Shown one piece after another: positions 14,371-20,959 of a stretch of 61,710 nucleotides of DNA. The notes under the pieces were generated by a model, which saw only the letters and a list, made by a program, of their open reading frames with translations, had not been told where the DNA came from and did no database searches. The stretch comes from an uncultured Planctomycetia bacterium (lineage in GTDB: Bacteria; Omnitrophota; Gorgyraeia; 2-02-FULL-51-18): NCBI GenBank assembly GCA_964402785.1, contig CAYODQ010000005.1, positions 1-61,710 of the forward strand, in the 5' to 3' direction. How positions within the stretch are numbered: the first letter of the stretch is position 1; every line of letters begins with the position of its first letter. The position numbers and the translations under genes were made by a program.

Positions 14371-14640
14371 CTATCCGAATATATCCGCGTGAGTGCCTGT
14401 TCTAACGAGATAAAGCGTATGCGCATCCGCCTGATATACGACTAGCCAATCGGACTCAAGACGGCATTCCCGGAATCCTGCAAAATCACCGGATAATGGA
14501 TGATCCTTGAATTTTGCGGGAAGCGCATGGCCTGTCGCCAAAAGTTCAATAAGATAGCGAAGCTTGGACGTATCCTTGCCTCGTCGAGTTAACAGCTTTG
14601 TGTCTTTGGCGAATTGCTTGGCGTATTTTAAATCCCGCAC
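14371..14640 (-). CDS. yafQ: YafQ-family type II toxin (RelE superfamily mRNA interferase)
   Basis: KDHPLSGDFAGFRECRLESDWLVVY...LVRTGTHADIF. Confidence 0.92.
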   Translation of the reverse strand: MRDLKYAKQFAKDTKLLTRRGKDTSKLRYLIELLATGHALPAKFKDHPLSGDFAGFRECRLESDWLVVYQADAHTLYLVRTGTHADIFG

Positions 14641-14646
14641 GCGAGA

Positions 14647-14907
14647 TCAGATGCCGAGTTTTTTAAATAGGTCGTCAAGGTCAGCTGCAGTGCCAAGATT
14701 ATTCTTGGTGTGCACGTCTTTCATGGCTTTGAGCGTAGTGTGGTTGGGCATTTTGACATCAAAAGGGATGCCCTTTTGAAGCTTCACCTGGCGGAGAAAC
14801 AAATTGATGGCCTCGCTAAAAGAGATCCCCAGCGCCTTAAATATGCGATCCGTATCCTGCTTCAGGCTCTTTTCCGTCCGAGCCCGTATCATCGCTGATT
14901 TAGCCAT
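14647..14907 (-). CDS. RelB/DinJ-family antitoxin
   Basis: IRARTE..LK...LGISFSEAINLFLRQVKLQKGIPFDV..PN..T. Confidence 0.92.
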   Translation of the reverse strand: MAKSAMIRARTEKSLKQDTDRIFKALGISFSEAINLFLRQVKLQKGIPFDVKMPNHTTLKAMKDVHTKNNLGTAADLDDLFKKLGI

Positions 14908-15519: not shown

Positions 15520-16482
15520 ATAAGGTGTCAGTCCTTGACATTTGACACCTTGGCTTCGAGGACCTCAATAGATCTTTCAAGATGCCTGTCCTTTTCTAAC
15601 TTCGCTCTCATTCTGCGCGCAATCTGAGACACGGCAGAATGCGATATTTGAAACATATCCCCTATTTCTCTTTGTGTTGTTCTGGCATACTTGGTAAGCA
15701 TATATATCTGTTGGTTCTTAGGGTAACCTTGGCACAACCGAACAATATTTGCCAGAGGTCGCTGAAAGATCCTTTTTCTCCCCTGAAAGTCTATCTGAGT
15801 TTTATTTGAGATCTTGGTCTTCACTTTATTTAAAAAATCCTCGCTACCCAGGATAGCACCACCTCGAGCGTTTTTTAAAATATCTTGTTGGTCGTTTAGT
15901 CCCTCAAGCACAAAGCTGCGGTACATAGCAGACGATTCAAACTGGCCCAGCGTAAAATCTTTATGGAGAAAATTGGGCGACTTCTCCTTCAGATAATAGC
16001 GCATACTGGAATATTCATGATCTTCCGGATATTTGGTAAGCTTTGCCTTGACCGGATTCAGATGAATATACCGACTCACCTGCAAAAAATAAGCGTCTTT
16101 ATCAACCAAGAGAGCCTTGTATCTTCCCTGAAAAAGGTGACCAACTCTCTTATGTCTGCGGTTAAAACGCTGTGTATAAAGCCCAAGAAGACGCTTCATG
16201 ATATATGAGAGATTGGGATCTTTGGTCTCAATGAGAATATGAAAATGATTGGGCATGAGAGAGTATGCGTGGACAAGGAAATTGTAGGTCAAGGCAGAGT
16301 CGCTGAGAATATCTAGAAAAAGGTTGTAATCGTGGGCCGATCGAAAAATAGACTTACGTTCATTTCCTCGGGAGAAAACGTGGTAGACGGCGTCCGGATA
16401 CTCGATTCGCAGTGGGCGACCCATGCTAGTAAAGTAACATTAATAACGAGCATGTGTCAAATGTCAAGGACTGACACCTTAT
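15520..16482 (-). mobile_element. HUH Y1 transposase element bounded by perfect 29-bp terminal inverted repeats
   Basis: ATAAGGTGTCAGTCCTTGACATTTGACAC at 15520-15548 and its exact reverse complement at 16454-16482. Confidence 0.9.
15528..16424 (-). CDS. RAYT/TnpA-Y1 HUH tyrosine transposase with C-terminal HTH
   Basis: YHVFSRGN, LMPNHFH (HUH), GHLFQGRY, YIHLNP (catalytic Tyr), YSS, C-terminal HTH (TQREIGDMFQISHSAVS). Confidence 0.93.
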   Translation of the reverse strand: MGRPLRIEYPDAVYHVFSRGNERKSIFRSAHDYNLFLDILSDSALTYNFLVHAYSLMPNHFHILIETKDPNLSYIMKRLLGLYTQRFNRRHKRVGHLFQGRYKALLVDKDAYFLQVSRYIHLNPVKAKLTKYPEDHEYSSMRYYLKEKSPNFLHKDFTLGQFESSAMYRSFVLEGLNDQQDILKNARGGAILGSEDFLNKVKTKISNKTQIDFQGRKRIFQRPLANIVRLCQGYPKNQQIYMLTKYARTTQREIGDMFQISHSAVSQIARRMRAKLEKDRHLERSIEVLEAKVSNVKD

Positions 16483-17639: not shown

Positions 17640-19605
<1,966 letters not shown>

Positions 19606-19627: not shown

Positions 19628-19683
19628 TTAGCACTCACCTGACTTGAGTGCCACTATTCTACACACCCGGCTAGGAATGTCAA
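19628..19683 (-). promoter_or_regulatory. groESL promoter (TTGACA-N16-TAGAAT) and CIRCE operator (HrcA)
   Basis: TTAGCACTC-N9-GAGTGCCAC at 19628-19654, just downstream of the -10 box. Confidence 0.9.
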
Positions 19684-19687
19684 GTCG

Positions 19688-19919
19688 CAGAGTGTAGCTG
19701 GTGATCAATTTCGCTTTCGCCCACCCTTACCCTTTTTACTCCCATTGAAGGCTCTCTAAATATCTGGGGATGCCCCTCGCCAAAAATTACGGATAGGCCT
19801 TTGTGGCCTATCCTGATAATTATTTGGCGTCTCCCCAGAGAATTTAGAGAGCCTTCAATAAGCGGTCGTAAAAAGGCCGGGAATGGTCAAAAGCGAAATT
19901 GATCACCAGCTAGATTCTG
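19688..19919. repeat. Long palindrome H3 (~230 bp)
   Basis: Perfect 23-bp arms 19695-19717/19890-19912 and 18-bp arms 19744-19761/19842-19859. Confidence 0.92.
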
Positions 19920-19923
19920 AGAG

Positions 19924-20208
19924 TATGCATCCTAGCGGCAAGATATATTGATCTTGTTTGTTCCCGGCCTTTTCCGAGCGCCTATAGCTTTGTCATAAAT
20001 GGCAATGGAGACGCCAATCCGAACGAAGTGAGGGCTAGAAGTCCCATTTGCCGCCGCACGAGTAGATGCAGGAGTTCCTTCGGCGGCAAACGGACTTTTG
20101 GCGAGCCTGCCTGCCGGCAGGCAGGGGTCCATGCCATTTATGACAAAGCTATGCGAGGAAAAGGGTAAGGGCAAACAAGATCAATATATCTTGCCGGCGA
20201 GCATGCAT
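19924..20208. repeat. Long palindrome H4 (~285 bp) with nested 20-bp CCTGCCTGCCGGCAGGCAGG
   Basis: Perfect 25-bp arms 19936-19960/20172-20196 and 21-bp arms 19984-20004/20132-20152. Confidence 0.92.
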
Positions 20209-20212
20209 ATTT

Positions 20213-20959
20213 TTAAATCGCTAAATACGTGAGGCGGAGGCCGTCCATGGTGAGGTTGGGGTAAATCTGCTGGATGGACGGGCAGTATTTTTTCATGAAA
20301 GAGGCGTATCCGCCGGTGGCGATGATCTTGGGGTTGCCTCCGAGATCTTTCGAGACTTCTTGGGTGAGGCGCTCGCAGAGGCCGCCGATGCCGTAGGAGC
20401 AGCCGATGCGGATACTTTCGATGGTGTCGCGGCCGATGCGGGATGCCGGGTGTTTAAGTTTGGTTTTGGGAAGAAGTGCGGTGCGCTCAAAAAGGGCATC
20501 CAAACTAATTTCAATTCCGGGGGCTATCACTCCACCCAAATACTCCCCTTTTTTACTCACCACGTCGAAAGTGATCGCGGTACCAAAGTCGATAATGATC
20601 ATGGCTTTTTTATGAAGACGATAGCCGGCCAAGGCGTTGAGAAGACGATCCATGCCGACTTGCTTGGGGTTTTTGTAGCGGTTTTTGATGGGTACGGCCA
20701 CATCTGATCCGGCCACAACAACGCGCCCGGTCACAGATTTTTTAAAAAAAGATCTTAATTTTTGCGTGACACCTGGCACCACGGAACCAATGACCACATC
20801 GATGTCTGGTGTTTTTTTAAGTTGAGACACCAGCTGAGCAGGAATGCTTTTTTTAAAATCACTGGTTTTGATCCGAAGAAAAGGCTTCCAGCCATTTTTA
20901 TAAAGCGCCATGTACACGCTGGTATTCCCCACGTCCACCGCCAGAAGAGGTTTTGTCAT
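20213..20959 (-). CDS. coaX: Type III pantothenate kinase
   Basis: AVDVGNT, GMDRLLN, IIDFGTAITFD, GGVIAPG, ATGG; start moved to MTKPLL (ATGA overlap with birA). Confidence 0.96.
   Translation of the reverse strand: MTKPLLAVDVGNTSVYMALYKNGWKPFLRIKTSDFKKSIPAQLVSQLKKTPDIDVVIGSVVPGVTQKLRSFFKKSVTGRVVVAGSDVAVPIKNRYKNPKQVGMDRLLNALAGYRLHKKAMIIIDFGTAITFDVVSKKGEYLGGVIAPGIEISLDALFERTALLPKTKLKHPASRIGRDTIESIRIGCSYGIGGLCERLTQEVSKDLGGNPKIIATGGYASFMKKYCPSIQQIYPNLTMDGLRLTYLAI

Follow-up and report, generated by a model that had tools for sequence, protein, structure and literature searches.

Hairpins and genes of the coaX-groES spacer

The window, 61,710 nt in full, was contig C5 of a short-read metagenome-assembled genome of 2.05 Mb (77 contigs, 91% complete). 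Two long hairpins, H3 and H4, occupied the spacer between coaX and groES, with the following features:

19309-19605, minus strand: groES, flanking gene (Pfam Cpn10, E = 1.3e-36)
19628-19654, minus strand: CIRCE operator (TTAGCACTC, 9-nt spacer, GAGTGCCAC, as read on the plus strand)
19656-19683, minus strand: groESL promoter of sigma-70 type (TTGACA at 19683-19678, 16-nt spacer, TAGAAT at 19661-19656; 11/12 matches)
19685-19922, plus strand: H3, one repeat-family unit, running from core A to core B (inverted repeat I1, fold and nhmmer ends)
19685-19723, plus strand: left outer arm of H3, locus-specific, partner 19884-19922
19724-19736, plus strand: core A 13-mer of H3, CCCTTACCCTTTT (invariant CCCTT.CCC at 19724-19732; TTTT tail paired)
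19724-19883, plus strand: cassette of H3, 160 bp (0 mismatches with the cassettes at C1:163299 and C11:49427 of the same genome)
19871-19883, plus strand: core B 13-mer of H3, AAAAGGCCGGGAA (invariant GGCCGGGAA at 19875-19883)
19884-19922, plus strand: right outer arm of H3 (inverted repeat and unit alignment)
19936-20196, minus strand: H4, second unit of the family of H3, running from core A to core B (inverted repeats I2 and I3)
19961-20171, minus strand: cassette of H4, 211 bp, bounded by TTCCCGGCC (19961-19969) and GGGTAAGGG (20163-20171)
20106-20125, no strand assigned: 20-bp perfect palindrome CCTGCCTGCCGGCAGGCAGG, inside the second conserved asymmetric cassette loop of H4
20213-20959, minus strand: coaX (type III pantothenate kinase), flanking gene (Pfam Pan_kinase, E = 8e-57; 248 aa)

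Each hairpin folded as a single long structure (H3, -140 kcal/mol, z = -16.8; H4, -154 kcal/mol, z = -13.5). Matches by nhmmer placed the L end of H3 at 19683-19738 and its R end at 19869-19924, and the R and L ends of H4 at 19921-19977 and 20155-20202 on the minus strand, with the R ends of the two units facing each other. The earlier note had reported that two 13-mers of H3 recur in H4 as exact reverse complements, and this was confirmed (19724-19736 with 20159-20171, and 19871-19883 with 19961-19973; pairs I6 and I7), as was the adjacency of the hairpins to the groESL promoter, whose TTGACA hexamer abutted the left arm of H3. Promoter and CIRCE operator were both conserved in sister species and relatives. 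Approximately 15 nt separated the coaX stop codon from the outer end of H4. Elsewhere in the window, two adjacent small ORFs (14371-14907, minus strand; 89 and 86 aa) had the look of a RelE/ParE-type toxin-antitoxin pair, a call made by eye from the translations.

Synteny of coaX and groES was conserved, and the spacer measured 104-238 bp in 13 relatives vs. approximately 610 bp in the present genome. In the 13 relatives the coaX stop codon was followed by an A-run and then directly by the TTGACA -35 hexamer, whereas here H4 and H3 (approximately 516 bp) were interposed between the remnant TTTAAAAATAT and TTGACA. Given the shorter spacers of the relatives, the H3/H4 pair is a derived insertion of approximately 516 bp. 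Comparison with the empty sites of relatives revealed no direct repeat at the insertion boundaries that would indicate a target-site duplication. Two sister species (CoaX 79-82% identical) carried two long hairpins in the same spacer, composed of other sequence families (L014 1223-1650, L015 827-1188, L013 8748-8800), and their arms could be aligned with those of H3 and H4 solely at the hairpin base, by the -35 hexamer. Sister hairpins at the same spot also fit a selected function of the hairpin pair here.

An assembly artefact or a chance resemblance was considered highly improbable. The genome was assembled from short reads, and palindromic arms share de Bruijn nodes, by which both complementarity and cassette identity are perhaps exaggerated; however, an independently assembled SPAdes contig, taken from a separate ENA record, reproduced H3 base for base and matched the groES promoter, the H3-H4 junction and half of H4, with one SNP in all, before breaking off inside the H4 cassette. 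The artefact is also opposed by approximately 50 units with unit-specific complementary arms and different flanking genes, and by a conserved asymmetric core that graph folding could not produce and for which a control pattern gave no matches.

Family, unit anatomy and compensatory pairing

Exact copies of the two 13-mers numbered 15 and 14 in the genome, far more than chance would give. Units with core A and core B at ≤2 mismatches numbered 31, all of the same polarity and with cores 94-224 nt apart. The earlier note had proposed searching for further hairpins with the motif pair, and the strict paired pattern returned 27 matches genome-wide vs. 0 for the reversed control pattern; the refuting condition named in that note, a genome with no additional hairpins of this kind, clearly did not hold. 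A search with end profiles found 52 L ends and 36 R ends, for a total of approximately 50 units. Some 22 contig ends, approximately 14% of those in the assembly, fell within a family unit, so that the true copy number is above the count. A census of long inverted repeats gave approximately 90 hairpins of at least 100 bp in the genome, 27 of them with cores. The paired pattern was not found in 40 relatives, had 0 matches in GTDB species genomes, and had 3 matches in JGI metagenomes which were dismissed as chance, being located in coding sequence or low-complexity DNA where no hairpins occurred; plasmid and phage collections gave no match to the family. The H3/H4 family is a lineage-specific set of approximately 50 hairpin-forming repeats of 200-300 bases.

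Units occupied intergenic gaps and differed in the genes on each side. Their L ends came within 0-45 nt of a gene boundary (stop or start), and their orientation relative to the gene was approximately 50:50. Profile matches gave 10 pairs within the family, H3/H4 being one, all R-to-R, with no tandem and no L-to-L arrangement; units that appeared single were linked through a conserved linker of approximately 80 nt to a second hairpin family, and orphan ends were units truncated or replaced by a third. No autonomous element of the form L, ORF, R was found in the genome among the profile matches. The second family of giant hairpins, with arms CAAGCCGACAAGGGATAACCTTCGTAGGG..., was located at C7:24952-25132, C7:37772-37942, C19:3614-3789 and C35:22496-22649, and had a conserved symmetric 3x3 internal loop reading GTA on both strands (G.A, T.T, A.G); its linker to the H3/H4 family read TTCGTTC..GGATGAATT..TTTCATATACTGTGTAAACGAGCCACGTATCCAGCC.

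Unit length was 190-300 bp, with a cassette of 94-224 nt between the cores. Each unit was nested in three layers, namely outer arms of approximately 30 bp, the junction, and a cassette belonging to one of a few types. The L flank read ...TCATAG.ATG., often after TCTCTCTCTTG, and was followed by the outer arm (AGCCGGTAAC, approximately 8 variable bp, TTYGMTTTTRYYCR), core A (CCCTT.CCC), the cassette, core B (GGCCGGGAA), the complementary arm and the R flank. A pyrimidine run, AATTCTCTCTCTTG, stood just beyond the hairpin in most units and near gene ends (e.g., C7:51341-51380), was missing from H3 and H4, and may be a preferred insertion context or an optional module. The L-flank sequence TCTCTCTCT, also missing from H3 and H4, was rejected as a Shine-Dalgarno sequence or promoter for want of a consistent spacing or match, and is probably context or an optional module.

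Core A and core B (CCCTT.CCC and GGCCGGGAA) were invariant in 26 of 26 aligned units. The earlier note had described a 13+13-nt internal loop; its asymmetry stood, but not its size, since the inner CC-N-TTT and AAA-N'-GG bases of the 13-mers were paired, with N/N' being T/A, C/G, G/C or A/T, and position 10 of core A covaried with position 4 of core B. The unpaired or asymmetric part was reduced to approximately CCCTTAC vs. CCGGGAA, for which folding predicts an internal loop (TTAC/CC) and a 3-bp CCC/GGG helix with an AA bulge. Units that had diverged (CCCTTTCGCC/GGCACGGGAA and CCCTTCGCTTT/AAAGCGAGGGAA) kept 5'-CCCTT ... GGGAA-3', which are the irreducible invariants. The asymmetric junction gives the hairpin a polarity.

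Compensatory pairing was assessed in 26 units and 35 pairs, with shuffles and slid partners as controls. Paired cells amounted to 95.5%, vs. 70.9% with shuffling and 33-50% with slid partners. Changes were double-sided in 31 of the 35 pairs, including 27 of 27 outer-arm pairs, and cells changed on both sides numbered 223 vs. approximately 4 changed on one side. Compensation in the arms ran nearly always between Watson-Crick pairs, G.U intermediates being very rare, and arms were 91% complementary within a unit and 61% alike between units. Stems thus kept pairing rather than sequence around an invariant asymmetric junction, as had been claimed.

In 25 of 26 units (p = 1.5e-5) the more stable fold was that of the 5'-TTCCCGGCC...GGGTAAGGG-3' strand, units not being independent where cassettes are shared. 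Isolated stem mismatches, counted without redundancy on the A-to-B strand, were A.C in 18 cases and G.T in 6 (p = 0.02; 12 vs. 2 in the arms), and the core was predicted to be 2-4 kcal/mol more stable as ssDNA on the TTCCCGGCC...GGGTAAGGG strand. This modest strand asymmetry points to a putative single-stranded functional form tied to the polarity of the element itself.

A rival reading places the function in RNA. Long, nearly double-stranded structured RNAs or mRNA elements, with roles as insulators, in pausing or termination, as RNase III substrates or in stability, would have the junction as the internal-loop site of an RNA-binding protein. The very strong base-pair covariation agrees with this, as do the folding-energy strand bias and wobble-compatible mismatches, the filling of intergenic gaps with L ends close to gene ends (H4 lay right after the coaX stop), and the two hairpins retained in the coaX-groES spacer of sister species. 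Nevertheless, G.U intermediates in the arms were nearly absent (approximately 4 vs. 223 cells), which is atypical of selection at the RNA level, and the polarity of units relative to the neighbouring gene was close to even. No T-run followed either long hairpin, the sole match to an intrinsic terminator being a small apical sub-hairpin in H3 (19813-19791), and the best scores of Rfam covariance models were 13-17 bits, far under gathering scores, with no family match. The better-folding strands of R-to-R pairs would require outward transcription from a centre of 13 nt, with no room for promoters; and identical interiors, contigs broken at repeats, truncated or replaced copies and empty sites are marks of mobile repetitive DNA. 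A structured-RNA origin of the pattern was rated as unlikely.

Assortment of cassettes and arms

Interiors from core A to core B were 100% identical within each of three locus trios (160, 197 and 227 bp), a figure that may be inflated by short-read collapse of near-identical repeats, while the arms differed at 10-23 of 38 positions per side. Exact identity ended 0-14 nt beyond the cores, and 0-3 nt beyond them in 2 of the 3 trios. The 160-bp trio comprised H3, C1:163299 and C11:49427, with identity stopping 5-14 nt beyond the cores. In the converse case, arms were 90-95% identical and cassettes merely 69-79% identical. Identity of cassettes and identity of arms were uncorrelated (rho = -0.07; 325 unit pairs). 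The 13-mers mark the boundary between two independently assorting modules, a better description than the internal loop within freely drifting stems of the earlier note. Being invariant in every unit, the core can be assigned to neither cassette nor arms, and constitutes the junction.

The identity of the H3 interior to two other loci indicates that interiors spread or were homogenised very recently, contrary to the claim that no recent duplication was involved; age and locus specificity belong to the outer arms alone. Nor did the stems prove unrelated: H3 and H4 aligned in the same polarity with z = 4.4, both fitted the family consensus, and they had in common the junction-motif skeleton CTC[CG]CAT, CTCGCCAAAA, TTGGCGTCTCC and ATA[AG]GCG[GC]TCG. 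H3 and H4 are diverged homologues.

The cassette of H4 was a mosaic, with modules common to the 227-bp and 192-bp cassette types. Its second loop read GGACCC^CTCGCC opposite GGCG-TC-TCC, and the CCTGCCTGCCGGCAGGCAGG palindrome was placed there; the palindrome was present in H4 and C1:160298, and precisely missing from the otherwise matching C7:51411 and C18:24041. In the sister species, the inner hairpin was identical between L013 and L015 although their outer arms differed, so that the division into shared interiors and locus-specific arms extends beyond this genome.

Concerted evolution without any dedicated machinery, the main rival reading, could account for part of this pattern. Old units of structural DNA, inherited vertically, would undergo correction from arm to arm inside each hairpin, which would maintain complementarity, and ectopic conversion or replication template switching between copies would homogenise the interiors; tracts would end at the cores as the last homology between copies, and the core itself would be conserved for an unrelated function. 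Mosaicism reached several nested levels beyond the core, as between C1:160298 and C18:24041, which had their arms (95%) and innermost part in common and a different middle stem. Cassettes without arms were never seen among the units, and no empty outer arms were found by profile and census searches (a search with short arm words was too noisy). Compensation close to Watson-Crick only is expected from templated correction, and the sister species had hairpins at the same position. These results favour concerted evolution, but core homology of a mere 9-17 bp is short for RecA-type conversion, the boundaries of 0-3 nt in two of three trios are very sharp, and the invariance of the junction, the approximately 50 copies and the derived 516-bp insertion are left unexplained. 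Concerted evolution alone was regarded as possible, and on balance doubtful.

Relation to known repeats, candidate enzymes and significance

The layout of the H3/H4 family was that of REP and BIME elements at larger scale, with high-copy intergenic palindromic units in alternating orientation and conserved linkers (PMC8266576); a conserved in-stem mismatch or bulge with polarity was present here too, as were RAYT-like genes in the genome. In the REPs of E. coli, an AA-GC stem bulge is required by TnpA-REP, and recognition of the folded ssDNA is strand-specific (PMC8266576). By analogy, the conserved stem mismatch at the junction may be a determinant of protein recognition. Unlike REPs, which are 20-50 nt long, the present units measured 190-300 bp and had exchangeable cassettes as their interior; the position before the stem read G-N-AG instead of the conserved tetranucleotide of REPs, usually GTAG, with T in just 6 of 26 units; and, unlike in a REPtron, no RAYT gene was flanked by the hairpin family.

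Compensatory changes in hairpin stems are common in the REPINs of Pseudomonas fluorescens (PMC3116915). The H3/H4 units likewise were non-autonomous hairpin repeats with compensated stems, lineage-specific and persisting within one lineage. In REPINs, which measure approximately 100 nt, the terminal 16-mers are invariant and the spacer varies, whereas here the invariant element was internal and the terminal arms were variable, a layout inverse to that of the REPIN in which the interior was the most conserved part.

The attC sites of integrons are recombined by IntI as folded single strands. The present units resembled them, in principle only, in being defined by structure with little conservation of stem sequence, in having unpaired or extrahelical bases that would direct the choice of strand, and in standing at cassette boundaries; unlike attC sites, they had no R''/R' GTTRRRY boxes, cassette ORFs, array or identified IntI. 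A test for attC boxes matched the arms (..CCGGTAAC / GTTACCGG..) to TAAC/GTTA alone, with no ORF cassettes. ERIC/IRU, Correia/NEMIS, RUP and BOX elements are similar as non-coding intergenic sequences of 100-300 bp that form long hairpins, some of them modular; to our knowledge, independent assortment of arms and interior has not been described in them. Differing from MITEs of DDE transposons, the family had no terminal inverted repeats shared with an IS, no target-site duplication and no autonomous partner that could be found, and, differing from PATEs derived from IS200/IS605, the whole unit was one hairpin in place of distinct subterminal LE and RE hairpins, TnpB was absent and the Y1 genes scored as RAYT rather than IS200. 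A reading as cyanobacterial MITEs or HIP1 was dropped, the genome being Omnitrophota-like.

The family resembles REPIN/BIME elements, 5-10 times larger. It was interpreted, with moderate confidence, as a REPIN/BIME-like non-coding mobile repeat in which arms and cassettes would be joined or swapped at the core, probably while the DNA is single-stranded and folded. The 13-mers would then be conserved because arms and cassettes join and exchange at this core junction. The element would fold transiently as single-stranded DNA, preferentially as the 5'-TTCCCGGCC...GGGTAAGGG-3' strand, and a structure- and strand-specific enzyme, with HUH/Y1 RAYT-like proteins as the best candidate class, would recognise the offset CCC/GGG junction. 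Cleavage and rejoining, or template switching, at the junction would shift cassettes between hairpin scaffolds, and would also disperse whole units or pairs into intergenic DNA.

The window contained one candidate of this class. The Y1 gene at 15528-16424 (minus strand) had REP-associated tyrosine transposases as its best-scoring family (73 bits with NF047646, cut-off 80) vs. 18 bits for IS200; it had a C-terminal HTH fusion (Sigma70_r4-like) and inverted repeats of 29 bp at 15520-15548 and 16454-16482. The genome had five RAYT-like genes, each in single copy; these paralogues shared 30-36% identity, and each had small palindromes of its own, some of which recurred a few times elsewhere in the genome. 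None of the five had flanks from the hairpin family or similarity to it, and a link by adjacency was rejected for 15528-16424 and its four paralogues, their own palindromes being unique or low-copy. Stand-alone mini GIY-YIG genes of 83-100 aa numbered four (C3:6193-6411, C29:20169-20384, C23:10166-10375 and C39:18999-19199), and the one on C23 stood approximately 100 bp from a 125-bp hairpin (C23:9942-10066). Tyrosine recombinases numbered three, two of approximately 300 aa and Xer-like in size. IS110 was absent from the genome, like TnpB, and a topoisomerase IB lead taken from the invariant CCCTT was abandoned, there being no TopIB in the genome. No enzyme is linked to the hairpin family.

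A more far-reaching possibility, judged improbable, is that the junction is the crossover site of an undescribed structure-specific ssDNA recombination system, integron-like, that swaps distal non-coding hairpin cassettes. Nested giant hairpins would then be built layer by layer, and the enzyme might come from the HTH-fused RAYT-like proteins (n = 5) or the mini GIY-YIG nucleases (n = 4).

Hairpin repeats of the interspersed kind (REP, BIME, REPIN) have been described chiefly in proteobacteria. The H3/H4 family brings an uncultured phylum into the range of such elements, with units 5-10 times as large as usual and an unusual, inverted organisation: interiors are conserved while arms vary by locus, and the two modules assort independently about a single invariant asymmetric junction. 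Should that junction be the target of an enzyme, two 9-mers in a hairpin would be a defined substrate with which to look for a new recombinase or nuclease specific for ssDNA structure. Since the units break contigs and adjoin promoters such as that of groESL, they matter for the assembly and annotation of Omnitrophota genomes and for the reading of their regulatory regions.
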